Notes under the pieces: generated by a model
Told to the model about the DNA's origin: nothing
Databases searched by the model: none
What the model saw: the letters and a program-made list of their open reading frames with translations, nothing else
Program-made: the position numbers and the translations under genes
Shown here: positions 3,801 through 29,632 of the stretch, one piece after another
Position numbering within the stretch: position 1 is the stretch's first letter
How the letters are laid out: every line of letters starts with the position of its first letter
Assembly (NCBI GenBank): GCA_963724515.1
Contig: CAVRUU010000003.1
Coordinates: 643,593 to 707,592, forward strand
Length of the DNA: 64,000 bases
Direction: 5' to 3'
Source of the DNA: Candidatus Eiseniibacteriota bacterium
GTDB taxonomy: Bacteria > Eisenbacteria > RBG-16-71-46 > SZUA-252

Positions 3801-4464
3801 ACGTCCCGGCCCCGATGATCCCGTCCAGCACGCTTCTGGAGTTCCCGATCGGGTCGACAGCGCCGCCACCCCCGCCGATCAACCAGACGAAGTCGTAGCC
3901 GCCCTCGGTGCTGAATTGATAATCGAACGTGAGGTTGTAACTCGCACCGTGCGTCCCGGTGTCTATGTAGAGGATCTGGTACGTGAAGTTCGCGTAGCCA
4001 TACTTCACGACCCAATTCGCGTCGAATTTGCCGCACCAGAGCATCCGACTCCCCCCGATCGCCGGGGGGCAGTTCCCACCGGTGGTGCAGGTCGCGTTGT
4101 CCGAGACGTGCCACAGAACATCGCTCAGCGACTGGTCCACGACTTGGTACGGCCCCGTCGTGCCGGCCGTGTAGGAGTTCAGCGAGTCGGCTTGCGGGGT
4201 CGTCCGGGGAGTCCACGTGCTGTTCGCGCGATCGATGCACGCGCCGGGGTAGAGGAACCACGTAGTCGTCGCGGTCGCGGACCTGACGATCGAGCCAGCC
4301 CACGTCGGTGCAGGGACAGGTGACGGCGGCGGCGGGTAGCCCCCACCCTTGACGCGTTCGGCGGCCATGATGGGCGCGGGAGACAGGATCGGGAGAAGCG
4401 TCAGCGAAAGGACTACGAGGAGGACGTGGGCGCGATTCCGTGACTGCACAAGAAGCAAATCCAT
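862..4464 (-). CDS. Large secreted protein (1200 aa) with N-terminal signal peptide and C-terminal FlgD-Ig/T9SS-type sorting domain; function unknown
   Basis: ORF-track ORF. N-terminus 'MDLLLVQSRNRAHVLLVVLSLTLLPILSPAP' is signal-peptide-like. The C-terminal ~90 aa 'NRPNPFNPETVIPYSL...VRVYDVRGRLVRTLVD...SGIYFYLI...KKMAILR' matches the Por-secretion-tail / FlgD-Ig-like pattern. No HExxH or other catalytic motif recognised. Confidence 0.7.
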   Translation of the reverse strand: MDLLLVQSRNRAHVLLVVLSLTLLPILSPAPIMAAERVKGGGYPPPPSPVPAPTWAGSIVRSATATTTWFLYPGACIDRANSTWTPRTTPQADSLNSYTAGTTGPYQVVDQSLSDVLWHVSDNATCTTGGNCPPAIGGSRMLWCGKFDANWVVKYGYANFTYQILYIDTGTHGASYNLTFDYQFSTEGGYDFVWLIGGGGGAVDPIGNSRSVLDGIIGAGTYLIQWTGSISPTTPNATGGSTTGGPIMVTSGAGAPATVTGASFTIDASNRALYLVFKSDCFNSSEDGLWPEGHGQLLDNIFTSDNGTIYTDQAAAGGVDAFLGAVLVGTPGAPIVSARVAPGVGTLWQLVQGSSLPTPDTCTPKNTATDLIFEGGNVGNFHTVPNQFNSIVSCTFPIPPGIASVVGQWSQYEDLPRFQGYIQFAEYRFFKDGSWRRWRNTFLAGTRRGAALQYWYDVRAELAEATQADSVQLRYSVQCVPLLSADLNNCGDVIYGLLYDNFRLEVVTGVPSPVFGILPAFPAQSTFIDGTMAGTGCNAATVTAGACWPGIRGSDIAGGVAGGAVRDNFNSPLGDSITVSIGTGLRRDGMGINWHHGFDKSVSLGLTIAHTNPNFVAAFDAPRVIFRIFDPATKTWSPFDSSELDANSVALSSPDTVLIDTRFRMNWPPRDKIGSSLPGGFSVNGKSLYSQLAFLPRGTRLQYYLKGVDLNGGTTYRFSADWRAYEVEDLPILPGGSIVAPDIFEFNVLPRVYSPGAVGTQLAGKTSTPILNLDGSYTKWNYYVDPVTQALRALGVRADRYRTLQGDDEGNHIGGHEFVGTRAGRFGNYFPNMDEYSIKDSLALWYRIMIESSHVSTVVVDEESSAKLIKQWWETPTPGADGGDRCFFASGDNFFDELLAVGGPSHPNENALATSVLGVAAAANQWNGGGSITQPTIRDLFADPAAGPGLGTPGAYVYFVDGGCPVANRFDALVGIGSAEAQNSATYPTFASVTNVAAVSHATERDVLNDHDRNKALGYGFSIQFIRQGGSNLVDTRAQVLYKFLTSCRGPRSGSDTASCWPCPTDANKYGNWATLTGFSTGTYGPLYPIQDATRVLSTVDVTPPPSFVDALMQNRPNPFNPETVIPYSLSAAGRVTVRVYDVRGRLVRTLVDAVQPAGIHAARWNGIVESGKRTASGIYFYLITYPDGHTSSKKMAILR

Positions 4465-4519
4465 GCGAACCTCGCACTGTTCCGCGCCCCGGAACGGAGT
4501 ACAACAGAGCGGAATTCTA

Positions 4520-7500
4520 TCACAAAAGTCCCCCGATTGCGAGTTCGAATGCCCGCTCGAGCGTCATCGTGCGCCCCTTCGAAAAGACCGCGGCCGCGCC
4601 ATCGGCGCCCACCTCATCCCACAGCGAGCCCAGGTCCTCCTGGATTCTCCGCTGATCCTCCGGCATGGGTTTCACGCCGAGGGTTTCCCGGAGCGCGCGG
4701 GACGCGCCGTACAGGGTGAGCGCGCGCTCGGGCTGGTCCTGCCGGAACTCCAGCGCCGCGCACCGCTCCAGCGCGTCCACCATTCCCTGCCGGTCCCCGA
4801 TCTCGTGGAGGATCTCGAGGCTCTCCTTGAGGTACGCGCGGGCGCGCGGGAGATCGTGATCGTTTGCCGCGAGGAGACCCAGCTCTCCCAGCGAGTACGC
4901 GATCCCGGACCGCTCCCCGAGCTCACGCTGGAGCGCCAGCCCCTGCTCGTGGTACGCGTGGGCCGCGGCATCGTCCCCTTGCGCGCGGGCCGAAGTGCCC
5001 AGACCGTTCAACGTGATCGCTTCTCCGGTCCGGTCTCCCAGCTCTCGCTCGAGCGTGAGCGATTCCTCGTAGAACTGGCGCGCGCGCGCGTAGTCCTCCT
5101 GACCCAGCGCCACGCTCCCCAGATTGTGGAGCACGGCGGCGATTCCGTGACGATCGTCGATCGCGCGGCAGTGGACGAGGCTCTCTTCATAGGCGGACTT
5201 CGCCGCGGCGTGGTCCCCTTTCATGTACGCGAGGTTCCCCAGCTCCTTGAACGCCGACGCAAGCCCCTCCCGGTCGCCCTCCTCCCGCGCGATCGCAATG
5301 CACGCTTCGATCCGGTCGTGGGAGCCCGCGTAGTCTCCGAGACAGCGGGCCAGAACGGCGGCGCCGTGCAGGGCCTTCGCGCGCGCCGCGCCGCGCGCGG
5401 GCGCGCCGGGCGACTCCAGCGCTTTCCCGAGACGGCGGTTTCCCTCTTGCCAGAGCCCGCGGATCCACCAGAAGCGCCACAGGCTCGCGCAGAGGGAGAG
5501 TCCGCTCGAGCCGTCGCCGCGCTCGTGCGCCACCTCGACCGCCTGGCGGAAGTTGTCGTGCTCCTCCTCGAGACGGTTGAGCCAGGAAGCCTGCTCGGGT
5601 CCCATGAGCTCGGGTTCCACGCGCTCCGCGAGCGCGCGATAGAACTCGGCGTGTCGTCCGACGTGCGCGTCCCATCCTCCGCCGCGCTGGAGCCGCTCCC
5701 TGCCGTAGGCTCTCAGGGTCTCGAGCAACCGGTAGCGCGCGGTCCCTTCGCGGCCTTCCTCCGGAGTGAGGAGGGACTTGTCGACCAGGTGAGCCAGGAG
5801 ATCGAGGATCTCCTCCTCGCCGATTCCGTCTCCGGAGCAGACCGCCTCCGCGGCCTCGAGCGAGAGCCCTCCCGCGAACACGCTGACGCGCTGGAAGAGC
5901 TGCTGCTCCTTTTCCTCGAGCAGGTCGTAGCTCCAGTCCACCGCGGCCCGAAGCGTCTGCTGGCGCTGCAGCGTGGCCGTGCTCCCCGTCGTGAGAAGCC
6001 GGAAGCGATCCTCGAGGCGGCCGAGGATCTGGGGTGCCGGGAGCACCTTGATGCGGGCCGCCGCCAGCTCGATCGCGAGCGGGATCCCGTCCAGGCGCCC
6101 GCAGATCTGCGCCACCGTCCAGGCGTTCTGATCCGTGAGCGTGAACGCGGGCTGTACCGCGGCGGCGCGATCCACGAAGAGTCGTACCGATTCATAGCGG
6201 CTCACCGCCTGGCGCGGGAGCGGCGTGCCGGCGGGATCCGGAACGCTGAGCGAGGGAATCCGCCAGAGGTTTTCCCCGGCGACTCCGAGCGCCTGGCGGC
6301 TCGTGGCCAGGATGCGGAGCCCGGGTGCCGCGGCGAGGAGCGTGTTGGCCAACGCCGCGCAGGTGGGAGTCACGTGCTCGCAGTTGTCGAGAACGAGAAG
6401 CAGGGAGCGCGAGGCGAGATGCTCCGCGATCGTCTCGGCGATCGGTCGTCCCGGCTCCTCCCGAAGCCCCAGGGCCACGGCCACGCTCTGCGGCACGAGC
6501 GAAGGATCCGAGAGGGCGGCCAGCTCCACGATCCATGCTCCGTCCGTGAACCGTTCGAGAAGATTCCTTGCGACCTGGACGGCAAGCCGCGTTTTCCCGC
6601 ATCCACCTGACCCGAGGAGCGTCACGAGCCTTGCCGAGCCGAGGAGGCGCGCCACTTCCTGCATCTCCTCCTGACGGCCGACGAAGCTCGTCAACGATAG
6701 CGGAAGGTTGTTCGGAACGCGGGTGGGAGCATCGGCGGCGCCTGGGGATGGCGCGGGCGGCCGAGGTTCGTCGGAAAGCGAGCGCAGCGCCGCGGAGATT
6801 TCCGAGCCGCGCGAGTACCGCCGGTCGCGGTCCTTCGTCATCGCGCGCTGCACGATCGCGTCGAATGCGCGGGACAGCCCGGGCCTTACCCGGCTCGGGG
6901 CGGGGGGCTCGACGAGGGTGATCTCGTGGATGATCGAGAGGGCGCTCGGACCTTCGAACGGGACGCGTCCCGTCGCGGCCTCGTAGAGCACGACCCCCAG
7001 GGAGAAGAGGTCCGACCTCGGATCGAGGGTGTCCCCCCGCGTCTGTTCGGGGGACATGTAGGAGACCGTCCCCGCGATAGCGCCCGCGCGCGTCAGATCG
7101 CTCACGGTCGCCGCGGGCGCGGCCGGGCTCGCCTCTCCCTCCACGCGCTTCGCCAGGCCGAAGTCGGCGACCTTGGCGCGGCCCGAGCGTGTGAGCAGGA
7201 TGTTCGCGGGCTTGATGTCTCGATGGATGAGACCGAGCGCGTGCGCCGCGTCCAGCGCCTCCGCCACGTCGCCACCGATCCGGACCACCTCCTCCAGCTC
7301 GAGCGGCCCGCGGGAGACGCGGGCGCGTAGCGTCTCCCCTTCCACGAATTCCATCGCGATGAAGTGGTATCCGTCGGCCTCCTCGACCTCGTAGATCGTG
7401 ACGATGTGGGGATGGTTCAGCGTTGCGGCGAGCTGGGCCTCGCGGATGAAACGCTGGCGCGCGGACACGGAGTCGAGCGCGTCGCCGGAGAGGATCTTGA

Positions 7501-14419: not shown

Positions 14420-17134
14420 CTACCGCACGACGACGAACCTCCCGATCTCCTTGCCCAGCTCGGTGTCGACGGAGAAGAGATAGATCCCGCTCACGATCTT
14501 CTGGCCGTTGCGGGAGATCAGATTCCAGGGCACCGATCCCTCGCCGGCGGTCACGGCGTTCCTGCCGTATTGGAGATCCGACGGCGGCTTCCCGTTGAAG
14601 GGAATGTCCTTCACCAGGTCGCCCGCCAGGGTGTAGACGTGGATCGTCCCCCTCGTGCGCGGCAGGTTCATGAAGACGACCTTCGTGCCCGAAGGATCCT
14701 CCGTGGTGGGGACCAGGTCCCACTCCGCTCCTCCCTTGTAGGGGTTCGGCACGACGAAGACATGGTTCTGGTCGTTTCGCGAATCCCCGCGCGGATAGAC
14801 TACCTGCGCGTTCGAAGCGCTCGGATTCCCCTGCAAGATCGCGTCCGCGCCCGCCGAGTCGCCCGGTACGACGGAAACCGGCACGATCGAATAGAAGTAC
14901 GGGAAGCCGTTCAACACGTGGCTGTCCACGTAGCTGTACCGCCCGACCGCGAACAGCGTGTCGATCTCCGTGTAGCTCGAATCGTCGCGAACGGACCGCG
15001 TGTTCGGATCCCACCGGACCAGGGTCGGATTGATGTTCACGAACGGGATCGAAGGATCGATGAGCTCCGATAGGGGCCGCGCCGGAGTGTCCTTGGGGTC
15101 TGTCCGCCACTCGCCGAGGAGCGACCAGAGGCTGCGCGAGGGGGCGTTGGTCCCGAGGGGCCGCGTCCACCCCGCCGCGCGGAAGATTCGATAGCCGAGA
15201 AACTCCTTGAGGTTCCCTCTCTGAGCGTCCCGCACGTGCTCGGCGAAGTTGTTCCACTTGAGCGTGACCCTCCGATCCCCGGGGAAAAACCACGCGGACA
15301 GGCGCGTCGAGTCGAGGTGGCTCCCGTAGTTTCGCAGGAAGTCCGCGACCTCCCCTCGGCCGTTCTCGCCGGCGTAGAACGGCGACGGGAGCGGCGCCGC
15401 GGCCACCCAGTTCACGAGGTGCTCCCGCCCGCCCTGACCGGTGTTCACGTCGCAGTCGAAATCCACGTAGGTGCAGGAGGGCGAGACGATCTGGATATTC
15501 ATCGTGTCGTCGCTCGCGCAGTGGGCGCCGTCCGGGATCGTTCCGCCGAGGATGTCCTGGCACACGTACTTCCCGCTCTGCTGGAGCTCGCACGGCGTGT
15601 TCGGATCCCACGGCGGCACGCCGAAGAACCCAGGCACCGTGTTCACATCCGAGTGGAACCGGAGGCGGCACAGCGATGACTCGGGGATCTGGTACGTGAA
15701 GCCGCGACCGCCGACCTGCGTGTTGAGGAGGCAGGTCTCCTTTCCACAAGTACCGGTGAGCGCGCTGCCGTCCAGGTCCGAATAGAGACCGTCGAAGACC
15801 TGCTGGGCCCGGATCGCATTGTCGATCAGAGTCCCGCCGCCGGGGCTCGGACCGCGACCCAGGCCCATGACCCACGCGACCGAAACCGTGAGCGAGGAGT
15901 CCGGAAGGATGGTCCGGAAGGGCCCCGTCGCCATCATGATTCGGTAATCGAGTGCCCTCGCCGATATGATCTGCCCCACCAGGTCGGGATTGAGAGACGG
16001 GTCGGACATGAGCAGGTAGCGCTGGGCGTCGTTCTGCGGATCGCCCCCCGCCGCGAACGGGGCATCCCCCGAGAAGAACTTGAACGAAGTGATGCCGACT
16101 CTTCGTGGCGCCGACGCCCCGCTCGGGTCGGTCGTGTGGTTCAGGAAGATGCATCCGAAGTACCCGGGCGCGTCTCCCCCCTTGTGATCCTGGACACGGG
16201 CCGGATCGTCCGGGTTGTCCCACATGTACCCCATCTGAATTCGCCGCGATACGAAACTCCCGGTGGATCCCACGAAGGTCACGACCGAATCGATGAGCCC
16301 CGCCTGATCGTCGGAGTAGTAACAATCGCGGCAGACGGCTCGGCTTCCGATGTCCATGTCGGCGAAGATGCCGACATAGATGTTCCGCCACGCCCGGCCG
16401 CTCTGGTTGATGATCTTGTAGTCCATGCCCACGAAATCATTCTGTCCCGGGGTCGCCCACGCGTAGGAGGTCTGTTGAACTCTGAGACCGAGTGGAATGT
16501 GCTCGGGGCTCGTGGCTCTGACGTTCTCGGTGTCGTCGAAGTACTCGCAAGCGAGCATCTGCTGGCCGATTGCGGAATAGTCCTCATCGCATCGCCCGTC
16601 GCCGTCATCGTCCTCGCCGTTGAGGAAGTCCTCATCGACCAGCCCGTCCCCATCGTCGTCGGGGTTCACGCTGCCCGAGATCACCCGATTCGCGCCGGGC
16701 GCTCCCTCGTACGACTCTCGGACGTCCGCGACCCGGTCCGGTGGAAGCGGGACGCAGGCAGCCCGAGGAGTGAGCGTAGGCGACATCTCGTAGTCGAATC
16801 GGGTCCTCCCGATGGAGGTGGTGACATGCGGGATCCCGCTCGCGTCGAGCGCTCCCACCCAGAGGCCGGCGGCATACAGATAGTCGTTCCCCGACCCCGG
16901 AGGCCACTCGGCCGCGGGGACGGTCGAGAAGACTCCGTAGAATGGATTTCCCGTGACGCCGTAGTTCCCGATCTGAAGCTGCAGCTGGCCGACGTTGTGG
17001 ACGAATTTCCCGTCGGTCCGGACCAGACGTCGTTGATCCGGCCGGCCGGGCGCTGCCGCCGGATCGAGGGGCTGAAATGCGCAAACAGAAGACCAGAGGC
17101 TGAGGATGCCCAGAAGCCAGAGCGCGGATCTCAT
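14420..17134 (-). CDS. Large secreted protein (904 aa) with thrombospondin-type-3-like Ca-binding Asp repeats and a C-terminal beta-sandwich sorting-type domain
   Basis: Signal peptide 'MRSALWLLGILSLWSSVCA'. Repeats 'NPDDDGDGLVDEDFLNGEDDDGDGRCDEDY'. C-terminus 'NHVFVVPNPYKGG...GTIHVYTLAGDLV...SGIYLFSVD...GRFVVVR' resembles gliding/T9SS-type C-terminal domains. Confidence 0.65.
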   Translation of the reverse strand: MRSALWLLGILSLWSSVCAFQPLDPAAAPGRPDQRRLVRTDGKFVHNVGQLQLQIGNYGVTGNPFYGVFSTVPAAEWPPGSGNDYLYAAGLWVGALDASGIPHVTTSIGRTRFDYEMSPTLTPRAACVPLPPDRVADVRESYEGAPGANRVISGSVNPDDDGDGLVDEDFLNGEDDDGDGRCDEDYSAIGQQMLACEYFDDTENVRATSPEHIPLGLRVQQTSYAWATPGQNDFVGMDYKIINQSGRAWRNIYVGIFADMDIGSRAVCRDCYYSDDQAGLIDSVVTFVGSTGSFVSRRIQMGYMWDNPDDPARVQDHKGGDAPGYFGCIFLNHTTDPSGASAPRRVGITSFKFFSGDAPFAAGGDPQNDAQRYLLMSDPSLNPDLVGQIISARALDYRIMMATGPFRTILPDSSLTVSVAWVMGLGRGPSPGGGTLIDNAIRAQQVFDGLYSDLDGSALTGTCGKETCLLNTQVGGRGFTYQIPESSLCRLRFHSDVNTVPGFFGVPPWDPNTPCELQQSGKYVCQDILGGTIPDGAHCASDDTMNIQIVSPSCTYVDFDCDVNTGQGGREHLVNWVAAAPLPSPFYAGENGRGEVADFLRNYGSHLDSTRLSAWFFPGDRRVTLKWNNFAEHVRDAQRGNLKEFLGYRIFRAAGWTRPLGTNAPSRSLWSLLGEWRTDPKDTPARPLSELIDPSIPFVNINPTLVRWDPNTRSVRDDSSYTEIDTLFAVGRYSYVDSHVLNGFPYFYSIVPVSVVPGDSAGADAILQGNPSASNAQVVYPRGDSRNDQNHVFVVPNPYKGGAEWDLVPTTEDPSGTKVVFMNLPRTRGTIHVYTLAGDLVKDIPFNGKPPSDLQYGRNAVTAGEGSVPWNLISRNGQKIVSGIYLFSVDTELGKEIGRFVVVR

Positions 17135-17395
17135 CCGACCATTCCCCCGAGGACTTCCGGCTCTACGTGGATCGGATACTGAGACGGGGGGAGCATAGAA
17201 TCGGCCGAGGGGGGATTGATCGCGGGGGGGGAAAGCTCCGAACCGCGAATCTGCCCGGTGAGCGAGCGTCTGTCAAGGGGATTTCAGCCTGTGCGGGGCT
17301 CTACAAATAAAGCTTTACTTCTCCGCCGTTGGTGTCGATACTCCTTGCAAGCAGTAGCCTGTCGGTTGTACGTAGCGCAGAGATGCGATGCATTG

Positions 17396-17425
17396 CCGCA
17401 GGAGAAACCCCCTGCGGCGTTTTTT
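17396..17425 (+). terminator. Intrinsic-terminator-like hairpin plus U6 tract inside the csp upstream leader
   Basis: 'CCGCAGG-agaaaccc-CCTGCGG' followed by 'cgTTTTTTg', ~110 nt upstream of the csp start codon; further GC hairpins follow (17430-17510). Confidence 0.4.
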
Positions 17426-17534
17426 GTATCCGGGAGTCAGGTTTTCCCGGGGGCCCGACCAACGAGGCCGGGCTGGCCGAGCCGAGAGGCTCGGTGAGTG
17501 GGGGCACAAAGCCCCAGTTCGCAAGGAGCAAAGA

Positions 17535-17735
17535 GTGGCTGTTGGAACCGTGAAGTGGTTTAACGAGGCGAAGGGTTTCGGATTCATCCAGCAAGAGGGT
17601 GGCGAGGACGTATTCGTGCATTACTCTTCCATCTCCGGCGAGGGCTTCAAGACCTTGGCCGAGGGCGAGCGTCTGGAGTTCGAGGTCGTCAAGGGGCCGA
17701 AGGGTCTCCAGGCAGCAAACGTCCGCAAGGCATAG
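17535..17735 (+). CDS. Cold-shock protein, CspA family (67 aa)
   Basis: '[63 protein letters not shown]' carries the RNP1/RNP2 cold-shock-domain motifs. GTG start with SD 'AGGAG' 8 nt upstream. The ORF track lists a longer spurious N-terminal extension from 17388. Confidence 0.85.
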
Positions 17736-17800
17736 GTTAGGCCAGCGGTAGAAACGTTCGAGGCGGCACCGAAGGGTGTCGCCTCGCTTCGTTTCGCCCC

Positions 17801-19240
17801 TCAGTACCTCGGCACGGACGGATCCACCGTCTCCGCCCAGGCGTTGATGCCGCCGGTCAGGTTCTGCACCTTGCGGAAGCCGGCCTCGCGCAGGAGCTGG
17901 ACGGCCTTGCGGCTGCGCGGGCCGGATCGGCAATAGGCGACGATCTCATCCGCGGTGTTCAACTCCCCCAGCGAATAAGGCAGCGTCCCGAGCGGGATCA
18001 GCTTCGCGCCCTGAAGCCGCGAGATATCCCATTCCTGCCTCTCGCGAACGTCGAGCAGGAAGATGTCCTCCCCGCCATCGATTCGATTCTTCAAATCGCG
18101 CGGCGCCAGCTCCGAATCGCACGCGACCCCCGCGGATTCCGCCTCCAGTCCACAAAAGAGCGCGTAGTCGATGAGCTTCCGGATGCTGGGATTGGCGCCG
18201 CAGAGGGGGCAATTGGGGTCCTTCCTCAGCTTGAGGGTGCGGAAGCTCATCGCCAATGCGTCGAACAGAAGGAGCCTCCCGGCAAGCGAGACCCCCTTGT
18301 CCAGGATGAGCTTGATCACCTCGGTTGCCTGGATGAGACCCACGATTCCCGGCAGCACGCCGAGGACTCCCCCTTCGGCGCATGAAGGCACGAGTCCGGC
18401 GGGCGGAGGCTCGGGGTAGAGGCATCGATAGCAGGGGCCGTCCTTCGTCGCGAAGACCGACGCCTGCCCTTCGAACCGGAAAATGCTCCCGTACACGTTC
18501 GGCTTGCCCGTCAGGACGCACGCGTCGTTCACGAGGTAGCGCGTCGGGAAATTGTCGGTGCCGTCGGCGACGATGTCGTATTCGCGGAACAGCTCGAGGG
18601 CGTTCTCCGAGGTGAGCCGCGTCTCGTGCGTCTCGACCTGGATGAGCGGATTCACCCCTCGGAGCCGGTCGCGCGCGGAATCGAGCTTCGACCGGCCCAC
18701 GGCCGACGTGTCGTGGATGATCTGCCTTTGCAGATTGGACTCATCGACGACGTCGAAATCGACGATTCCGATTCTCCCGACGCCCGCGGCGGCGAGATAG
18801 AGCGCGAGGGGCGAGCCGAGCCCGCCGGCCCCGATCAGGAGCACGCTCGCGTTCTTGAGCTTCACCTGACCCTCGAGGCCCACCTCGGGCATGATGAGGT
18901 GCCTGCTGTAGCGGCGGATCTCCTCCTGGGAGAGAGGGAGCGGGGACGCGTCCCCATTCCCTCCGACGCCTCCCGCGACCGACGGGACGATGCTGACGAC
19001 GTCCTTCTCGGCGAGGAGGGTTTCGCCTTTGTTCAAGTACCTGACGTCCTCGTCGTTGACGTAGACGTTCACGAACGAGCGAAGCCGCCCGTCCTCGGAG
19101 TAGAGGTGCTTCTTGAGCTGGCCGTGACGCTCGACGAGGCGGCTCAGGGCGTCGCCGACCGTGCCTGCCTCGACGGTCACTTCATTGGCCCCGCCTACGT
19201 AGCTCCGGAGCGGGGTCGGGATCAGGATCTTCACGTGCAT
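17801..19240 (-). CDS. moeZ: Tri-domain fusion: N-terminal ThiS/MoaD/CysO-like sulfur-carrier domain (ends in GG), MoeZ/MoeB-type E1 adenylyltransferase, C-terminal rhodanese
   Basis: Residues 1-90 'MHVKILIPTP...VVSIVPSVAGG' form a beta-grasp sulfur-carrier fold ending in Gly-Gly. E1 domain has 'LLIGAGGLGSPLALYLAAAGVG' and the Zn motif 'CYRC...C..C'. Rhodanese active-site loop is 'YCRSGPRS'. Confidence 0.8.
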   Translation of the reverse strand: MHVKILIPTPLRSYVGGANEVTVEAGTVGDALSRLVERHGQLKKHLYSEDGRLRSFVNVYVNDEDVRYLNKGETLLAEKDVVSIVPSVAGGVGGNGDASPLPLSQEEIRRYSRHLIMPEVGLEGQVKLKNASVLLIGAGGLGSPLALYLAAAGVGRIGIVDFDVVDESNLQRQIIHDTSAVGRSKLDSARDRLRGVNPLIQVETHETRLTSENALELFREYDIVADGTDNFPTRYLVNDACVLTGKPNVYGSIFRFEGQASVFATKDGPCYRCLYPEPPPAGLVPSCAEGGVLGVLPGIVGLIQATEVIKLILDKGVSLAGRLLLFDALAMSFRTLKLRKDPNCPLCGANPSIRKLIDYALFCGLEAESAGVACDSELAPRDLKNRIDGGEDIFLLDVRERQEWDISRLQGAKLIPLGTLPYSLGELNTADEIVAYCRSGPRSRKAVQLLREAGFRKVQNLTGGINAWAETVDPSVPRY

Positions 19241-19650
19241 TCGACTTCCTCCGCGTCAAATCGATCGCGTTCCTCCGCCAGCACCCACGACGTCAGGTCG
19301 CTCGGCTGGCCGCGCTCCACGCTCACGATCAAGTACGAATACCAGGGCCACGCGTGCTCGCGGTCGTACTCCGACGGCCGGGCGGGATGGTCCGGATGGG
19401 AGTGGTAGATCCCCACGACGTCGAGCCCGTGGCTCCGCGCCCATGCCTCCGCTTCCCGGTACGCCTCGGGCCCCGCGTAGTAGCGACGCTCCGGCGATTC
19501 CGCGGTTCGGTTCTCGAACGGTCGGGCCACGTGAACCACCTTGCTTCCGTTCTGCGTCTGGCCGAGCAGCACGCCGCAGCATTCCGCGGGGTAGGCCTCC
19601 GCCCCCCTCGCGCGGATTTGCCGCAACAGGTCGACCGGGATCCGGATCAC
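19231..19650 (-). CDS. mec: JAMM/MPN+ metalloprotease (Mec+/CysLP family)
   Basis: JAMM motif 'E..CCGVLLG' and 'HSHPDHPARPSEYD' (HxHx7Sx2D). Overlaps the upstream cysM by 4 nt and the downstream fusion gene by 10 nt, suggesting translational coupling. Confidence 0.8.
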   Translation of the reverse strand: MIRIPVDLLRQIRARGAEAYPAECCGVLLGQTQNGSKVVHVARPFENRTAESPERRYYAGPEAYREAEAWARSHGLDVVGIYHSHPDHPARPSEYDREHAWPWYSYLIVSVERGQPSDLTSWVLAEERDRFDAEEVECT

Positions 19651-20711
19651 AGCTCCGCCTCCCAGAACCGCTCGCTCAGATAGCGGTCCGCCCCGTCGGG
19701 GAAGATCGTCACGACGCGCGGCGTCTCACCCGCGCGGATCGCCTCGCGGGCGACCTCGAGCGCGCAGTGAAGTGCTGCGCCCGACGATATCCCGATCAGC
19801 AACCCCTCCTCGCGCGCCGCGCGGCGCACCATGCGATAGGCCGCCTCCGTCGAAACCGTCCGATTCTCGTCCGGGAACGACGGGTCGTAGATCTCGGGCA
19901 CGATCGCGCTTTCCATGTGCTTCAGGCCCTCGAGGCCGTGGAAGGGTGAGTCGGGCTGGACCGCGACGATCCGCACGCCGGGAATCTGCTCGCGGAGTCT
20001 CCGTCCCACGCCCATCAGGGTCCCCGACGTGCCGAGGCCCGCGACGAAATGCGTTACGCGCCCGCGGGCTTGTTCCAAGATTTCCACCGCGGTCGTGTTG
20101 TAGTGCGCCTTCCAGTTCGCCGGATTCGAGTACTGGTCCGGATAGAAGTACCGATCCCCTTCGCGCGAGACGATGCGCCGCGCCTCACGAATGGCGCCGT
20201 CCGAGCCTTCCTGCGCGCTCGTGAGCCTCAGATCGACTCCGTACGCGCGCAGGATTCGGATCCGCTCGGGACCCGCGTTCGCCGGAAGGCAGAGCGTGAC
20301 TCGGTATCCCTTCGCGGCGCCGATCATCCCGTACGCGATGCCCGTGTTTCCCGACGTCGCGTCGAGGATCGCGCGGTCCGGAGTGAGCGCGCCGCTCTGC
20401 TCGCCCTCGTGAATCATCGCGAGGGCGGCCCGGTCCTTGATCGAGCCGCCGGGGTTCTCCCACTCGGCTTTTGCGAGGATCTCCGCGCCCCGAAGCTCGG
20501 AGCCGATGTGGCGGAGCTTCACGAGCGAGGTCCCGCCGATCAGGTTCAGGATGGATGCCGGACGGCGATACCGGCGGCGCTCGCGAAGCGGCTCTCGGGT
20601 GCGCCCCTGAAGAAGGGATCGAATCACGTCTGGGGCTCCGGATATGCGTGTGTCTTCACTGTATGTTTCTCCTTCGATGGCCCGGCGCTCCGCGTCCGGA
20701 GACGCCGCCAT
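19647..20711 (-). CDS. cysM: Cysteine synthase (CysM/CysK family, PLP-dependent; thiocarboxylate-accepting CysM-type by context)
   Basis: 'GGSIKDRAALAMI', 'TSGNTGIAYGMIGA', 'GTSGTLMGVGRRL'. The first ~45 residues of the track ORF may be spurious; the true start is uncertain. Confidence 0.8.
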   Translation of the reverse strand: MAASPDAERRAIEGETYSEDTRISGAPDVIRSLLQGRTREPLRERRRYRRPASILNLIGGTSLVKLRHIGSELRGAEILAKAEWENPGGSIKDRAALAMIHEGEQSGALTPDRAILDATSGNTGIAYGMIGAAKGYRVTLCLPANAGPERIRILRAYGVDLRLTSAQEGSDGAIREARRIVSREGDRYFYPDQYSNPANWKAHYNTTAVEILEQARGRVTHFVAGLGTSGTLMGVGRRLREQIPGVRIVAVQPDSPFHGLEGLKHMESAIVPEIYDPSFPDENRTVSTEAAYRMVRRAAREEGLLIGISSGAALHCALEVAREAIRAGETPRVVTIFPDGADRYLSERFWEAEL

Positions 20712-21103: not shown

Positions 21104-24100
21104 ATGGGCACGAGCTGGGCCTTCGGAAAATGGCTGGAGTCGGGTCGCCACTGGCCGGACTCGGAGAAGAGCCCTCTTCGCGGGGAGCTCCTCAGCGTCG
21201 AGCACCTCGAGGAGCGGGCTCGCGTTCTGGCGGCAAGCTATACCCTCGCCCGCAATCCTCGCCACCGGCCGCACCGATTTCTGCCTCGCCTCCAGGAAAA
21301 CGCCCGCGCCCTCCGCCGCGCCTACCTCGCCCTGGCGGGAGATGTGCGCCGCGGACGGCCGGTGGCTCCGGCCGCCGAATGGTTGCTCGACAATTTCCAT
21401 CTGGTCGAAACGGAAGTCGGCGAGGTCCGAAAGAACCTCCCGCAGCTCTACTATCTAGAGCTTCCCAAGCTTGCATCCCGTGAGGTCGCGGGCATGGCGC
21501 GCGTCCACGCCATGGCCCTCGAGTTCATCCGGCACAGCGATGCGCGCTTCGACCTCCATCGCCTGACACGCTTCGTGAGCGCCTACCAAACGGTGGCCCC
21601 CCTGACGCTCGGCGAGCTGTGGGCCTGGCCGAGCATGCTCAAGCTCAGCCTCATCGAGAATCTGAGGCGACTCACGGACGAGATCATGGAGAGCCGCGCG
21701 GGCGAGGCGGAAGCCGACCGCCACTTCGCGCGCTTCGAATCGACAGCCGCCACGGACCCGCTTCCACCCTTCCCCGAAAGTCTTTCGAACGGGTTCGTGG
21801 TCCAGCTCGCTCAGCACATGAGAGAACTCGGCCCGCGTATCTCCGAGCTGAGGGCCGCGCTCGAGCGAACGCTCAACGCGGCCGGCTCCAGCGTCGATGA
21901 GGCGGTGCGCGCCGAGCACCAGCGGCAGACCATGGGGCATGCCTCGACGGGCAACTCGATCACCTCGCTGAGGCTGGTCGCCACCATCGATTGGAATCGC
22001 GCGATCGAGCGCGTGAGCTTGATGGAGCAGGTTCTCCAGCGCGATCCCGCCGGCGTCTACGGCACGATGGACTTCGCCAGCCGCGATCGCTACCGGCAGG
22101 CGGTGGAGGAATTGTCCGAACCGAGCGGAGAGGCTCAGATACGCGTGGCTCTCCGCGCGATTGAGAGCGCACGCCAGGCGGCGGAGAAGCATCCGGGCGA
22201 ACCGAGCGGGCACATCGGGTATCACCTGATCGGCGGCGGGCGCCGCGAGTTCGAGGTGGATGTCGCATACGTCCCGCGATTCAAGCAGAGGATCCGCCGA
22301 TTCATCTTCGCACGCGCCGTGCTCTTCTATCTGGGCCCGGTCTCGTTCCTCACCGCCTTGGGCGTCGCCGCGACGGCGGTTTACGCGCGATCCCAGGGCG
22401 CTCCGGTGACCCTTCTCCCCTGGGTCTGTGTGCTTGCGCTCATCCCCGCGAGCCAACTCGCGATCCTGACCGTCCAGAAGTTCGTGCACCGTGTCGCTCG
22501 GCCCCGCCGCCTGCCCAGAATCGAGCTCGAGGGCGGCGTCCCGGAAGAGGCGTGCACGATGGTGGTCGTGCCCACGCTGCTCGGGGGCGTCGGGAGCGCG
22601 AGAGCGCGGATCGAGCATCTCGAGGTGCAGGCGCTCGGGAACATGGATCCACAAATCCACTTCGCGCTTCTCACGGACTTCCCCGACGCGACGGAGGCGG
22701 AGCGGCCCGAGGACGAGGCCATACTCGCGGTCGCGGTGGCCGGAATCGAAGCCCTGAACGCCCGTCACGGAGGCGGCAAGCAGAACCGCTTCTACCTCTT
22801 CCATCGGCCCCGACAGTGGAATGCGCAGGAGGGCGTGTGGATGGGTTGGGAGCGAAAGCGGGGTAAGATCGAAGAGTTCAACGCTCTGCTGCGCGGTTCC
22901 GATGACACGTCGTTCCAGATCATGGTGGGCGACCGATCGATTCTCGAGAAGGTCCGCTACGTCATCACGCTCGATTCCGACACCCGCTTGCCGCGCGACG
23001 TCGCGGGTCGGCTGATCGGAGTCATCCGGCATCCCCTCAACCGCCCGCATTTCGATCCGCGGCTGGGCCGCGTCGCTCGGGGCTATGGAATTCTCCAGCC
23101 GCGCGTGAGCGTCACCATGTCGAGCGCAGCGGGCTCGCTGTTCGCGCGCGTCTACGCCGGCCACACGGGGGTCGACCCCTACACGACCGCGGTCTCGGAT
23201 GCCTACCAGGATCTCTTCAGCGAGGGCATCTTCACCGGCAAGGGGCTGTACGACGTCGATGCCTTCACGGCCGCCCTCGAAGGGCGCGTGCCCGAAAACG
23301 CGCTCCTGTCGCACGACCTGTTCGAGGGTCTCCATGCCCGAACGGCTCTGGTCTCCGACATCGAGCTCGTGGACGACTTCCCGTCGAGCGTGCTGGCTCA
23401 CGCGGGGCGCCAACGCCGCTGGGTGCGCGGCGACTGGCAGATCCTGGCTTGGCTCTTCCCCTGGGTGCCCACGCGGCATGGCCTCGAGCGGAATCGCCTC
23501 CCCCTGATCAGCAGATGGAAGATTCTCGACAACCTGAGGCGAAGCCTGGTCGCCCCCAGCACGCTCGCCCTTCTCGCCTCGGGATGGACGTGGCTGCCGG
23601 GGGCACCCTGGGCGTGGACCCTTGCGGTGGTCGCCGTCTCCAGCTTTCCGATCTATCCGCAGCTGTTGCGCGGCCTGAGAGGACCGGCCCAGCACCAACC
23701 CACCGGGGTCTTCCTCCGCGACGTGCGGGAGGAAGTGAAGACCGCCGGAGCGCAGGTGCTCCTCGACCTCCTCCTGCTCGCCTACCACTCCTACGAGATG
23801 GTCCATGCGATCGGGGTCACGCTGGTGCGGCTGATCGTCACGCAGCGGAGGATGCTCGAGTGGGAGCCTGCCGCGGCCGCCGCGGCCCGCGCCGCCGGGC
23901 TGACCGGGCGCGAGGGACTGCGCGCGTTCGCGAACGGAATGTGGGCCAGCCCCGCCACGGCGATCGCGCTCTACGCGGCCATCCTCGCGTCGCGGCCCGA
24001 AGCGCTCCGGATCGCCTCGCCGCTGCTGCTCCTCTGGTTGTCCGCGCCTCTCGTTGCCTTCTGGTTGAGCCGCCCGGCGCGCCCGCGCGTGATCGTTCTC

Positions 24101-27100
24101 GCGCCGCGCGATCGGATCTTCTTGCGCCGCGTCGCCCGGAACACCTGGCGGTATTTCGAGACGTTCGCCGGGGAGGGAGAGCACTGGCTCCCGCCGGACA
24201 ACGTTCAGGAGACACCGGGGGAGAAGACGGCGCATCGCACGTCACCGACGAACGTCGGCATGGCATTGCTCGCCACGTTGTCCGCGCACGACCTGGGCTT
24301 CATCGACGCGCAGGAAACTCTCGATCGGATCGAGCGGACGATCGCGACGGTCGAAGTGCTCGAGAAATTCCAGGGGCATCTGCTGAACTGGTACGACACC
24401 ACGAGCCTGGCTCCGCTCCAGCCCCGCTACGTGTCGACCGTCGATAGCGCCAACCTCGCGGGGTCCCTGCTCGCCGTGGCGGAGGGGCTGCGACGGCTCG
24501 GCACGGCCCCGGCGAACGCCCTCCGCTTGGCCACGACGATCGAGGACACCTCGGCGCTCCTGCGCCAGAGTCTCAATACCTGCGCCAAGAACAGCCCTGA
24601 CGCGTCGATCCAGGAGCGCCTGGCGCGGGCCATTCGCGAGCTGGACGCCCTGGATCCGGCCGCCGCGCTGGAAACGGCCGGCCTCGGCGCGATTCCCGGG
24701 CACGAGGCCGCGGAGGCGGCCTTCTGGGGCGGCATGCTCCTGCGCCTCATGCGGGGCCCGACCGAGTCTCCGATGAAGCCGGGCGATTCGCGCGCCGCCC
24801 TCGCCGACCGGGCGGAAGCCCTCGCGAACGCGATGGACTTCAAATTTCTCTACGACCGCGAGCGTCGGATCTTCTCCATCGGGTTCCGGCTTGCGGACAT
24901 GGAGGGCCCGGGACGTCTCGATCCCTCGTACTACGATCTGCTGGCGTCCGAAGCTCGGCTCGCGAGCTTTGTCGCGATCGCCAAGGGGGACGTCCCCCAG
25001 GAGCACTGGTTTCAGCTGGGACGCGCCCTCGTGGGCGTCGGCGGGATGCCTACCCTGGTCTCATGGAGCGGCTCGATGTTCGAATACCTCATGCCGCTTC
25101 TGCTCATGCGGAGCTATCCGGACACGCTGCTCCACCATTCGAGCGGGGCCGCCGTGCACGCGCAGATCCAGTACGGGCGCCTCCAGGGAGTCCCCTGGGG
25201 AATTTCCGAGTGCGCGTTCAATCTCCTGGATCGGCACGGGACGTACCAGTACAAGGCGTTCGGCGTGCCCGAGCTGGGGCTGAAGCGCGGATTGTCCGAA
25301 GATCTCGTCGTGGCGCCGTACGCGACGGCGCTCGCGGCCATGGTCGATCCCATAGAGGCCGTGGCCAATCTGAGGCGCCTCGCGCGCGAAGGCGCCCAGG
25401 GCAAGTACGGCTTCTATGAAGCCCTGGATTACACGCCGCGCGAGAGCGGCAAGGCGACGGAGACGGCGGCGGCGAGCGGCCGCGCCCGACCTGTGCCGGT
25501 ACAGGCGTACTTCGCGCATCATCAGGGAATGACCGTCGCGGCGCTCGCCAACGCGGTGCTGAACGATCTGATGGTGTCCCGCTTCCACGCCTCCCCGGGA
25601 ATCCAGGCGACCGAGCTTCTGCTGCAAGAGAGGGTGCCGCGCTTCGTGCCCGTGATCCGGCCCAGGCCGATCGAGGTGACGCGGGTCGCGCCGGCGATTC
25701 TGCCCGTTTCGCCGCGGCGGTTCCGCACGCCGCATACCCGTTATCCCCACGCGGCATTTCTTTCCAACGGCCGCTACGTATCGGTGGTCACGAACGCGGG
25801 AGGCGGCGCCAGCTCTTGCCGCGGTCTCGCGGTCACGCGCCAACGGGAGGACGCGATCCGCGACCCAGGCGGCCAGTATCTCTATCTTCGTGACGTGCGA
25901 AGCGGCGCGACCTGGTCCGCGACCTATCAACCGATGCGGCGCGAACCGGACGAATACCGGGTCACCTTCCTCGCGGACAAAGCGGTCATCCAGCAGAGCG
26001 CAGAGGAGATTGACACGTTGCTCGAGATCGCGGTCTCTGCAGAGGACGACGTGGAGGTGCGGCGGTTGTCGCTCACCAATCGGAGCGCGCACCAGCGCGA
26101 GATCGAGATCACGAGTTACGCAGAAGTAGTGCTTGCCCCGCAGGCGGATGACCTCGCACACCCGGCCTTCGGAAAGCTCTTCCTGGAAACCGAATGCAGC
26201 CCGGAAACCGCTTCACTCCTGTGCGGACGGCGGCGGCGCTCCGAGGAGGAGCCCGGCGCTTGGGCGATCCACGTGCTGAGCCTGGAAGGCCGCACGCAGA
26301 GCGCCGTGGAGTGGGAAACGGACCGGATGAGATTCCTCGGCCGTGGCCGCGGTCCCGACGACCCGGTCGCGCTCGACGGCCGGCCGCTTTCGGGCACGGT
26401 CGGCGCGACCCTCGACCCGATCTTCAGCCTCCGGCAGCGCATCCGGCTCGCGCCTGGGGGGTTCGCGCGGGTCGCCTTTGCGACCGGGATGGCCGCCGAC
26501 CGTGACGCCGCGATCGCCCTCTGCATGAAGTACGCGGACCCGACCTCGGCGCCACGCACCTTCGCGCTCGCCGCGACCCAGCTCTCGATCACGCTCCGTC
26601 ACCTCGGCATCCCGGTCGAGGAGGCGCAGCTCTACGAGCGTCTCGCCTCGCGCGTCTTCAACACCGACCGCTCTCTGGGAGCCGCCCCCGGGGTTCTGGC
26701 GCGCAACGTCCTCGGCCAATCGGGACTCTGGGGCCACGGCGTCTCGGGCGATCTCCCAATCTTGCTGATTCGCGTGCTCGAGCCGGACGACGTCGCACTC
26801 GTGCGCCAGGTGCTGCGGGCCCAGGACTACTGGAGAGTGAAGGGTTTGAGCGCCGACGTGGTGATCCTGAACGAGCATCCGGTGAGCTATCGGAACGAGA
26901 TCCACGAGCAGCTCGAGGTCCTGCTGCAGGGTGGTCCCTGGGGTGCGTGGAAGGATCGCGCCGGCGGGGCGTTCCTGCTCACCGCGGAGGGCATGAGCGA
27001 GGCCGAGCGCGTCCTCCTCTCCGCCGCCGCGCGCGCGGTCCTGAGCGGTGACGCGGGGGATCTCGAGGCTCACCTGAATCGCGCCTATTCGGAACCCGCG

Positions 27101-29632
27101 TGGCCGCCCGCGCTCGAAGTCGCCGGACCTTCCACCCAGCCGTCCGAGGAGGATTCGGGTCCGGAGATCGAGATCCCGGAGCTCACGTTCTGGAATGGGC
27201 GCGGGGGCTTCACGCCCGATGGGAAGGAATACGCGATCGTTCTGAACGGAGCCGACGAGACGCCGCTCCCCTGGGCCAACGTTCTCGCCAATCCGCGCTT
27301 CGGAAGCGTTGTGACGGCCGCCGGCCCCTCCTACACCTGGTCCGAGAACAGCCGCGAGAACCGGCTCACCCCGTTCATCAACGACCCGGTGACGGAAGGG
27401 ACCGGAGAGGCGATCTACCTGCGCGACGACAAGACGGGCGCGGCATGGGGCGCGACACCCGGCCCGATGCGGCGCGAAGCCGATGGAGGGCGCTGGATCG
27501 TGCGCCACGGCGCGGGCGTGACGCGCTACGTGCGCCGCCAGCGTGGGATTCGGCACGAGCTGGCGATCTTCGTCCATCCTACGGAGCCGGTGCGTTTCGC
27601 GCTGCTCACGCTCGCGAACCAGACGGGCCGGCCGCGGCGCCTGAGCGTCTTCAGCTACAACGAGTGGAGGCTCTCCCCGCCGCGCGCCGGCGAGCAGATC
27701 CACGTCCGCACGGAGCTCGAAGCAGACACTTCGGCACTGCTCGCGGAGAATCCGTACAACCAGGATTTCAGGGGACGGGTCGCATTCGCGCACGCCGGCC
27801 CGCTCACTTCCGCGACCGGCGACCGGCTGGAATTCCTGGGCAGGAACGGCACGATGGCGCGACCGGCCGCGCTCGGCCGCCGCGTGCTGTCGAACGCCTT
27901 CGGCGCGGGGCTGGATCCCTGCGCCGCGCTCCAGGTCGCCGTGGACCTGGCACCTCGCGAGACCCGCCAGGTCGTCTTCCTGCTCGGGCAGGGCGAGAAT
28001 CGTGACGCCGCTCTCCGTCTCGTTCGCGCTCATGGATCCGCATCCGCCGCGCTCTCGGCGCTCCGGGATGTCGAACGCTCCTGGGACGACATCCTCGGCG
28101 CGGTTCAGGTCCATACGCCGGACGACTCCTTTGATCTCCTCATGAATCGCTGGCTTCTCTATGAGTCCGTCGCGAGCCGGTTGTGGGCACGGACCGCCTA
28201 TTACCAGCCGGGCGGCGCGTATGGGTTCCGCGACCAGCTTCAGGACGTGATGGCGCTGAGTTTTGCAGGTCCCCGGCACTACCGGGAGCACCTGCTGCGC
28301 GCCGCCGGCCGCCAGTTCATCGAGGGGGATGTGCAGCACTGGTGGCACGCCCATACGGGGGCGGGTGTGCGGACCCGTTGCTCCGATGATTTCCTGTGGC
28401 TGCCGTTCGCCGTCGCGCACTACGTCGATGCGACCGGCGACCGCGCGGTTCTCGAGGAGCGCGTGCCGTTCCTGACAGGGCAACCCCTCCGTCCGGACGA
28501 GCAGGAGGCCTACGGTCATCCTGGCGTATCGGGCGAGAGCGCGACGCTCTACGAGCATTGCGCGCGCGCCATCGACCGGGGCATGACCTCGGGATCGCAC
28601 GGGCTCCCGCTGATCGGGAACGGCGACTGGAACGACGGCTTGAACCGTGTGGGGCGGCAGGGTCGGGGAGAAAGCGTCTGGCTGGGCTGGTTCCTGTCGA
28701 GGATCTTGAGGGATTTTGCCGGCCTCGCCGAGAAGCGTGGGGACGGCGAGCGAGCCGCCCGCTACAGGAACGAGATCGGACGCCTCGCGGTGGTTCTCGA
28801 ACAGGCCTGGGACGGGGACTGGTACCGGCGCGGGTACTTCGACGACGGCACGCCTCTCGGCTCGGCGCAGAGCGAGGAATGCCGCATCGATTCTGTCGCC
28901 CAGTCCTGGGCGGTGCTGTCCGGTGTCGCGCCTTCACAGCGCGCGGAGCGCGCGATGGACTCCGTGCGGAGCCATCTGGTCCGGCGGGACGCCCGCGTGG
29001 TCCTTCTCCTCACTCCTCCCTTCGACTCATCCCCGCTGGATCCCGGCTACATCAAGGGCTACATCCCCGGCGTGCGCGAGAACGGCGGCCAGTACACGCA
29101 CGCGGCGATCTGGGTCTTGATGGCGGTGGGCAGCCTCGGCAGCGGAGACGAGGCCGTGGAGCTCTTCCATCTCCTCAACCCGATCAATCACGGGCGCATG
29201 CCGGCCGACATCGCGCGCTACAAGGTCGAGCCCTACGTGGTCGCGGCGGACGTGTACGCGCACCCCGCCCACGCGGGCCGCGGCGGCTGGACCTGGCAAA
29301 CGGGATCGGCGAGCTGGATGTATCGTGCCGGTCTGGAGACCATCCTCGGGATCGAGCGCCGCGGTTCCACATTCTCCCTGAATCCCTGTCTGCCATTCGC
29401 GTGGCCTGGGTTCTCGGTCGTGCTTCGTACCGGGAATACGCGTTACGAGATCTCGGTCGAAAACCCCCAGCAGCGCTGCCGCGGGGTCTCGGAGGTGGAA
29501 CTGGATGGCGTTCCGGTCCCGGCCCATGCGATTCCCTTCCGCGACGACGGGGGAAGACATCAGATTAGAGCCGTGATCGGTGATCCGGTCATGGCAAGTA
29601 GCGGCGTCGGGCGGTCCGAACACGCGGGCTGA
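21104..29632 (+). CDS. cgs: Cyclic beta-1,2-glucan synthase homologue (Cgs/NdvB/ChvB-like, 2842 aa): N-terminal membrane domain + GT84 glycosyltransferase + C-terminal GH94-type glucan phosphorylase/hydrolase domain
   Basis: Size and architecture match the NdvB family: N-terminal '[12 protein letters not shown]' region, TM segments around residues 400-470 and 900-1000, a DxD-type motif '[13 protein letters not shown]', and a C-terminal alpha/alpha-toroid GH94-like region ('NGDWNDGLN', '[10 protein letters not shown]'). Uninterrupted 8.5-kb ORF. Confidence 0.75.

Follow-up and report, generated by a model that had tools for sequence, protein, structure and literature searches.

The window analysed here, a stretch of 64,000 nucleotides (nt) from a Candidatus Eiseniibacteriota bacterium (assembly GCA_963724515.1, contig CAVRUU010000003.1, positions 643,593 to 707,592 of the forward strand), carries a compact operon of three genes, in which a cysM-like gene and a gene for a JAMM protease are followed by a single open reading frame (ORF) that joins a CysO-type sulfur carrier to a ThiF/MoeB-type E1 enzyme and a rhodanese domain. 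The Gly-Gly (GG) of the carrier thereby comes to lie inside a longer polypeptide, from which the JAMM enzyme probably releases it. Gene order and overlaps are exactly as in an initial annotation of the sequence; the elements of the operon, with lengths in amino acids (aa), are as follows.

19647-20711, minus strand: cysM-like gene, 354 aa as called (Pfam PALP)
19231-19650, minus strand: JAMM/Prok-JAB gene, Mec+-like, 139 aa, GTG start
17801-19240, minus strand: fusion ORF of CysO-type carrier, spacer, ThiF/MoeB-type E1 and rhodanese, 479 aa, ATG start
18968-19240, minus strand: CysO/ThiS/MoaD-type beta-grasp carrier domain, aa 1-91, ending VAGG (phmmer against the PDB, Pfam ThiS, AlphaFold2)
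18968-18973, minus strand: codons gga ggc of Gly90-Gly91; predicted scissile bond Gly91-Val92
18935-18967, minus strand: spacer, aa 92-102, VGGNGDASPLP, without conservation across homologues
18206-18910, minus strand: ThiF/MoeB-type adenylating E1 domain, aa 111-345 (Pfam ThiF, E 1e-83)
17831-18103, minus strand: rhodanese domain, aa 380-470, active-site Cys437 in CRSGxRS (Pfam Rhodanese, E 2e-18)

The stop codon of the cysM-like gene shares 4 nt (GTGA) with the GTG start of the JAMM gene, whose own stop overlaps the ATG of the fusion ORF by 10 nt. A Shine-Dalgarno-like GGAG stands 5' of both starts, and GGAGGAAG precedes the ATG. The cysM-like gene probably begins at GTG 20627 rather than at ATG 20711, giving a product of 326 aa, because a GGAG sits 8 nt 5' of this GTG, because homologues align only from about residue 50 onward, and because the protein collection lacks the 354-aa product while holding those of the JAMM gene and the fusion; positions 20627-20711, the first 28 codons of the ORF as called, would then probably be untranslated. 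Neither a riboswitch nor a sigma-70-like promoter was detected 5' of the cysM-like gene.

What is the domain that precedes the E1? Pfam places a ThiS domain at residues 5-91 of the 479-aa protein (E 4e-12), and residues 1-91 match two crystallised CysO proteins over their full length in phmmer searches, the M. tuberculosis chain 3DWG_C (E 8e-16) and the ThiS/MoaD chain 4N6E_B (E 3e-15), which are the best solved relatives of the domain and on whose C-terminal AVAGG its SVAGG is aligned. An AlphaFold2 model of the fusion, based on a 62-sequence alignment and with a mean predicted local distance difference test (pLDDT) of 83.4, gives the domain a beta-grasp-like secondary structure over residues 2-86 at a pLDDT of about 80-90. 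Thus, the N-terminal ThiS/MoaD-like domain ending in VAGG, as first annotated, is borne out by the Pfam match, the end-to-end alignment with CysO and the predicted secondary structure. At residues 87-99, the GG tail and the spacer, pLDDT drops below 50 and the chain is predicted to be disordered; a predicted template modelling score of 0.65 leaves the relative placement of the domains uncertain. Residues 88-91, VAGG, are followed by VGGNGDASPLP and then by LSQEEIRRYSRHL, the conserved N-terminus of the E1. The GG is not the free C-terminus of the translated protein, as the ORF continues into the E1 for 388 residues after it; because the ORF runs through the GG in this way, a free terminus at the GG can arise only by processing.

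The three domains found by Pfam (ThiS, ThiF and Rhodanese) agree with the domain order described initially. In Foldseek comparisons the E1 part resembles MoeB (1JW9_B, TMt 0.92) and ThiF (TMt 0.93-0.95), and the combination of E1 and rhodanese finds its best match in Uba4 (6YUB_A). Invariant across 62 homologues are the arginine-finger segment RYSRH (110-114), the nucleotide loop GGLG (139-142), the two CxxC zinc motifs C270xxC273 and C344xxC347, C287 and the rhodanese C437. NCBIfam models assign MoeB/MoeZ names to the fusion and SAMP1/MoaD to its N-terminal part, with most equivalog scores below the curated cut-offs; for the MoeZ equivalog NF005902 the score is 515 bits against a cut-off of 647, a membership at family level. 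Since the catalytic and structural motifs are invariant across homologues, all parts of the fusion look functional.

The JAMM protein (Pfam Prok-JAB, E 2e-28) has 2KCQ as its nearest solved chain (E 8.5e-36), with PfJAMM1 (5LD9/5LDA) matching too, and direct reading finds its motif intact (E23, H83-S-H85, S93 and D96). The cysM-like protein (Pfam PALP, E 1e-64) retains the lysine context SIKDR of enzymes dependent on pyridoxal phosphate (PLP) and matches M. tuberculosis CysM (3DWG_A, E 2e-59), with general CysK proteins scoring higher; it reaches 329 bits with the NCBIfam model cysM TIGR01138 (cut-off 394) and 338 bits with cysKM TIGR01136 (cut-off 344). The assignment to a CysM-Mec-CysO-MoeZ pathway made at the outset fits this combination of a CysM-like enzyme, a JAMM protease and an E1-rhodanese with a carrier closest to crystallised CysO. 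The operon would accordingly serve CysO-dependent, that is protein-thiocarboxylate, cysteine biosynthesis, with the formation and use of the thiocarboxylate predicted from sequence.

Fused and split forms in related genomes

The arrangement is real and widespread. A search of a 5.8-billion-protein library yielded 120 homologous clusters among the matches listed, at 65-100% identity, with Eisenbacteria, Binatia, Acidobacteriota and Blastocatellia as named sources. In all of these clusters a single reading frame leads from the GG motif on to the E1 motif, and all three Pfam domains are found in 119, the remaining one being an N-terminally truncated fragment. A scan of one genome per GTDB species, with residues 1-127 as the query, gave at least 518 confirmed matches, of which the best 80 loci were analysed; these belong for the most part to Acidobacteriota, and also to Gemmatimonadota, Eisenbacteria, Dormiibacterota, Ignavibacteria and Bacteroidota. 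The fused form is present at 64 of them. The carrier family is present in hundreds of species, and the fusion is common. We rule out an assembly or frameshift artefact, since the fusion recurs across no fewer than 120 protein clusters as well as at 64 genome loci.

Across the fused proteins, constraint stops at the GG. The motif [IL][IV]P[SA][IV]AGG is invariant (179/179 scorable fused sequences), so that no homologous fusion devoid of the internal GG was seen in this set. The stretch from the GG to the E1 motif ([ILVM]xRYSRH) measures 8-37 residues, with a median of 17, and is rich in A/P/L/V/E/T without any conservation of sequence; directly after the GG, the 120 fused proteins have A, S, V, K, T, R, I, G or L, never Cys. 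Of the junction VAGG/VGGNGD, for which conservation had been singled out as a check, the part up to the GG is therefore conserved as [IV]AGG and the spacer that follows is not.

Conservation extends to the operon. At 77 of the 80 best loci the cysM, JAB and carrier/E1 genes follow each other in this order on one strand, and at 79 a JAB gene lies upstream on the same strand. Loci L039 and L058 have the JAB gene directly upstream and unrelated ORFs in place of cysM (around 4400-6000). A second CysO-like gene is absent within 6 kb at 79 of the best loci. The sole locus with such a gene is L074, where a free CysO-like ORF of 99 codons (1411-1707, minus strand, E 2e-29) lies on the strand opposite to the fused gene, 4.3 kb upstream of it.

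New in this picture is the relation between fused and split forms. The remaining 16 of the 80 loci are split, with a stop codon shortly after the GG and an E1 that has its own Met. Without exception, the split carriers end in GG plus 1-11 residues, and none in a bare GG; the ends include GGR, GGK, GGV, GGMY, GGREN, GGARK, GGGQEM, GGNGDR, GGAGNKRAR and GGCCPCGCCCCPR. A search of 1.8 billion cluster representatives, mostly metagenomic fragments and used for tail statistics alone, returned a bare-GG end in only 2 of 143 motif-carrying representatives, a figure that, from so fragment-rich a list, is indicative only. In a neighbour-joining tree built from the E1 portion, the state switches between fused and split at least 8 times; for L032 and L035, both split, the nearest neighbour is a fused locus at a distance of about 0.09. 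The junction DNA of close fused/split pairs shows many indels between flanks that align cleanly, and the free carrier gene of the split relatives occupies the exact position of the fused domain. In all 16 split loci carrier and E1 are in frame, to which we give no weight, as the junction-spanning query favours in-frame cases. Read-through of the stop codon in these loci is ruled out, since all three stop codons, TAA, TAG and TGA, occur among them and a Met of its own is available to the E1 ORF downstream. The pattern of fused and split forms is the one expected if everything after the GG were removed and hence almost unconstrained.

Many related free CysO-type carriers have cysteine-rich tails straight after the GG (P0166, P0170, P0178, P0195, P0197, P0214, P0217, P0223 and P0230, and locus L079:5280-5600). 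These tails include GG-CCCCCCL, GG-CCALI, GG-CCVMTCGT, GG-ACACYCPCRMNA and GG-C, and GG-CCPCGCCCCPR in L079, whereas Cys follows the GG in none of the 120 fused proteins. A GG-Cys end resembles the CysO-cysteine adduct, and the carrier QbsE ends in GG-CF. Conceivable roles of the cysteine-rich tails are mimicry of the substrate, translational pausing that senses cysteine, or sites for metal or persulfide.

Proposed release of the carrier at its Gly-Gly

How could a carrier with an internal GG be charged? E1 enzymes of the ThiF/MoeB type adenylate the free alpha-carboxylate of the carrier's terminal glycine (PMC3227635, PMC1779556). An internal GG cannot be adenylated in this manner, and the uncleaved protein therefore cannot charge itself, which makes self-charging in cis, one of the two mechanisms offered by the initial annotation, chemically implausible. 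The conserved GG makes sense only as a future terminus. The fused domain, moreover, is the carrier of the operon, since it is the sole CysO-like ORF in the window, with no other within 6 kb at nearly all of the best loci, and since the free carrier gene of split relatives sits at the same position.

We infer that the carrier is most probably freed, together with a MoeZ-type E1, by a cut of the JAMM enzyme after the GG. This was the other mechanism proposed initially, and it is the better supported of the two, if by inference only. The JAMM protein is the best candidate because its gene overlaps that of the substrate, because the mycobacterial Mec+ hydrolyses the CysO-cysteine adduct, a bond of the same type (PMC3227635, also for the chemistry of the CysO pathway), and because related JAMM enzymes cleave carrier fusions and post-GG tails. 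Release by JAMM is further supported by the invariant [IV]AGG with its unconserved, predicted-disordered spacer, by the upstream JAB gene that is retained even in the two loci lacking cysM, and by the split relatives, in which post-GG tails likewise need trimming.

In the scenario that emerges, translational coupling of the three genes would lead to protease and precursor being made together. The JAMM enzyme would hydrolyse Gly91-Val92. The products would be CysO, 91 residues long and ending in a Gly-Gly carboxylate, and an E1-rhodanese of MoeZ type with about 388 residues. The E1 would then adenylate the CysO-GG, and the persulfide of the rhodanese Cys437 would convert it into the thiocarboxylate CysO-COSH, which the CysM-like PLP enzyme would add to the aminoacrylate derived from O-phosphoserine or O-acetylserine. 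Following an acyl shift to CysO-Gly-Gly-Cys, the same JAMM enzyme would hydrolyse the CysO-Cys bond, releasing cysteine and regenerating CysO. Maturation and turnover would thus be one reaction, the hydrolysis of the peptide bond after the GG of CysO. With a single cut for both, anything encoded after the GG would be disposable, such that short tails, long spacers and whole-E1 fusions could freely replace one another in evolution.

Several points weigh against this reading. The adjacency of the JAMM gene does not discriminate, since unfused systems such as that of M. tuberculosis keep Mec+ for hydrolysis of the adduct. At locus L055 (1-2083) the fused gene follows an unrelated gene, with neither JAB nor cysM upstream; the co-occurrence of the JAMM gene with orthologous fusions, which the initial annotation had proposed to check, thus holds at 79 of the 80 loci, fused and split, and fails here, which implies either a protease encoded elsewhere or the action of another one. 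The cysM-like enzyme does not reach the NCBIfam cysM cut-off, and its sequence is closer to those of general CysK proteins than to that of CysM from M. tuberculosis, so that it is gene context that points to the use of a protein thiocarboxylate. A separate free cysO gene, regarded at the outset as a sign that the fusion could be merely an accessory, is absent from the 64-kb window, the part of the source genome that was searched, and present near one of the 80 related loci.

Which other explanations does this leave? The precursor could be cut after the GG by a housekeeping protease or by autocatalysis, with the JAMM enzyme acting solely as a Mec+ on CysO-Cys. The protease that cleaves MoaX, the fusion of MoaD and MoaE in M. 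tuberculosis, is still unidentified in mycobacteria, and E. coli does not process MoaX correctly (PMC4326299); together with L055 and the occurrence of JAMM in unfused systems, whereby its presence is no proof of a maturation role, this lends the idea some substance. We nevertheless consider it unlikely. Adduct and precursor contain the same type of bond, in which the alpha-amine of the following residue is joined to the CysO-GG; linear carrier fusions and post-GG tails are described as substrates of related JAMM enzymes (PMC8832034, PMC5925218); and the JAB gene is kept where cysM is absent. Self-cleavage in particular is disfavoured by the variable residue after the GG, with no conserved Cys, Ser or Thr in the fused proteins.

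The operon could also serve, mainly or additionally, a conjugation of the SAMP/TtuB/Urm1 type, in which the carrier is attached to target lysines and the JAMM enzyme is a deconjugase. SAMPs, TtuB and Urm1 have dual roles as sulfur carriers and modifiers (PMC2948915, PMC9574740), and the best NCBIfam names are SAMP1 for the carrier, the SAMP-activating E1 UbaA and desampylase. All three scores remain below their cut-offs, though, with 56 against 60 bits for NF041918 (SAMP1), 353 against 450 for NF047750 (UbaA) and 83 against 130 for NF041370 (HvJAMM1/desampylase), and no E2-like gene is present; with CysO proteins as the best solved relatives of the carrier and the linkage to cysM at nearly all loci, we regard conjugation as quite improbable. 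Very unlikely, in our judgement, is that the beta-grasp domain stays attached to the E1 for good and serves it as a docking, regulatory or autoinhibitory module, sulfur being carried by a separate CysO, MoaD or ThiS. Here the precedent would be Campylobacter, where a ubiquitin-like (Ubl) domain of non-ThiS type is fused to ThiF beside a standalone ThiS and was inferred by Iyer et al. to have a different role (PMC1779556), and the second CysO-like gene of L074 and the 64-kb limit of our search for a free carrier point in the same direction. The domain in the window, however, is homologous to CysO over its full length rather than being a divergent Ubl. Its GG is invariant while all sequence from there up to the E1 drifts, a free carrier gene takes its place in split relatives, fused and split forms interconvert between close relatives, and at 79 of 80 loci there is no second carrier gene nearby.

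JAMM release would admit a further twist, to which we assign a low probability: the fusion could be a zymogen in which the tethered CysO tail and the spacer occupy or obstruct the site at which the E1 dimer adenylates, so that MoeZ stays inactive until the zinc-dependent JAMM cut. That this cut is regulated, for instance by redox state or thiols, switching on thiocarboxylate-based cysteine synthesis and yielding a pre-assembled 1:1 complex of carrier and E1, is no less speculative.

Relation to known carrier systems

The initial annotation saw in the fusion a distinctive processing logic. This was an overstatement, as the fusion is common and has precedents in MoaX, DR0402 and QbsE/CxnE, in a prediction of 2006 and in a list of Ubl-E1 fusions of 2010; the arrangement is a variation on the processing known for related carriers rather than a novel type of system. 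All four predicted activities also occur in M. tuberculosis, in CysO, CysM and Mec+ (Rv1335, Rv1336 and Rv1334) and MoeZR (Rv3206c), comprising a carrier ending in AGG, a PLP-dependent sulfhydrylase, a JAMM protease and an E1 that bears a rhodanese at its C-terminus. There, CysO is a free protein of 93 residues that ends exactly at the GG, and moeZR is unlinked (PMC3227635), whereas here the carrier is fused N-terminally to the E1 and everything resides in one translationally coupled three-gene operon. In addition, the CysM-like enzyme of the window, unlike M. tuberculosis CysM, is not clearly an O-phosphoserine-specific orthologue.

Closer in architecture are MoaX, which requires cleavage after Gly82 for activity (PMC4326299), and the natural MoaD-MoaE fusion DR2607 of D. 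radiodurans, which the JAMM enzyme DR0402 is reported to cleave, exposing a C-terminal Gly (PMC8832034, citing Yang et al. 2018); cleavage of linear SAMP fusions by HvJAMM1 is likewise cited in PMC8832034. As in the window, a sulfur carrier with an internal GG forms the N-terminal domain of a partner enzyme. In MoaX and DR2607, however, this partner is MoaE, the downstream sulfur acceptor in the synthesis of molybdenum cofactor, and the JAMM gene does not lie next to the fusion. In the window, by contrast, the carrier is joined to an enzyme that acts upstream, the activating E1-rhodanese, and the genes of the protease and its presumed substrate overlap. Trimming of shorter extensions is known from thioquinolobactin synthesis, where QbsD removes the CF tail of QbsE, and has been proposed for chuangxinmycin, where CxnF would remove a decapeptide from CxnE; in both, a cluster-encoded JAMM enzyme exposes the GG ahead of a MoeZ-type E1 (PMC5925218). 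With their tails of 1-11 residues, the split relatives of our operon look exactly like QbsE/CxnE precursors, whereas the "tail" in the window is not a short peptide but a functional enzyme of 388 residues. HcyS/HcyD, of methionine synthesis in Wolinella, provide a third example of a JAMM-trimmed carrier.

Such a role of JAB proteins for fused ThiS/MoaD was predicted by Iyer, Burroughs and Aravind in 2006 (PMC1779556, section 16). The gene set corresponds to their operon subtype 4c, with ThiS/MoaD, E1-rhodanese, JAB and cysteine synthase, whose hosts include an acidobacterium (PMC1779556, Table 1), and Ubl-E1 fusions were listed by Makarova and Koonin in 2010 as "shared with bacteria" (PMC2948915). 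We found neither paper to state, for the cysteine-synthase subtype, that carrier and E1 are fused, and full-text literature searches turned up no paper that describes or tests a CysO-MoeZ fusion.

If JAMM release is true, one protease performs both maturation and turnover in a sulfur-carrier pathway, and there is a simple reason why carrier genes tolerate any sequence after the Gly-Gly. It would also extend the rule of a carrier fused to its partner and freed by JAMM from a downstream synthase, as in MoaD-MoaE, to the upstream activating enzyme, in parallel to eukaryotic ubiquitin, whose fusion precursors are freed by deubiquitinases. Hundreds of genomes of soil Acidobacteriota, Gemmatimonadota and Eisenbacteria label the fusion plain "MoeB", a name that would conceal an oxidation-resistant CysO route to cysteine.

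Neighbouring sequence

The genes flanking the operon bear no relation to sulfur metabolism. Beyond the 3' end of the fusion gene lie two further features.

17759-17786: G+C-rich hairpin between the convergent fusion and cold-shock genes (pattern scan; 12-pair stem with 9 GC pairs)
17388-17735: cold-shock gene, convergent with the fusion gene

As a match to the consensus only, the hairpin is a possible shared terminator of both convergent genes. The leader and coding region of the cold-shock gene are spanned by a sub-threshold Rfam match to the cspA thermoregulator RF01766 (17368-17789, plus strand; 37.7 bits against a gathering score of 78, E 2.5e-7). On the other side of the operon, divergent from the cysM-like gene and about 390-480 nt away, an ORF of 2842 aa (21104-29632, plus strand) contains GH94 supersandwich, GH94 catalytic and glucoamylase-like domains and is of the cyclic beta-1,2-glucan synthase/cellobionic-acid-phosphorylase type. 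At 14420-17134 (minus strand) a protein of 904 aa with a signal-peptide-like N-terminus is encoded, for which Pfam gives no match at E < 0.001; a second ORF of 904 aa, at 38621-41335, shares its length but is unrelated.

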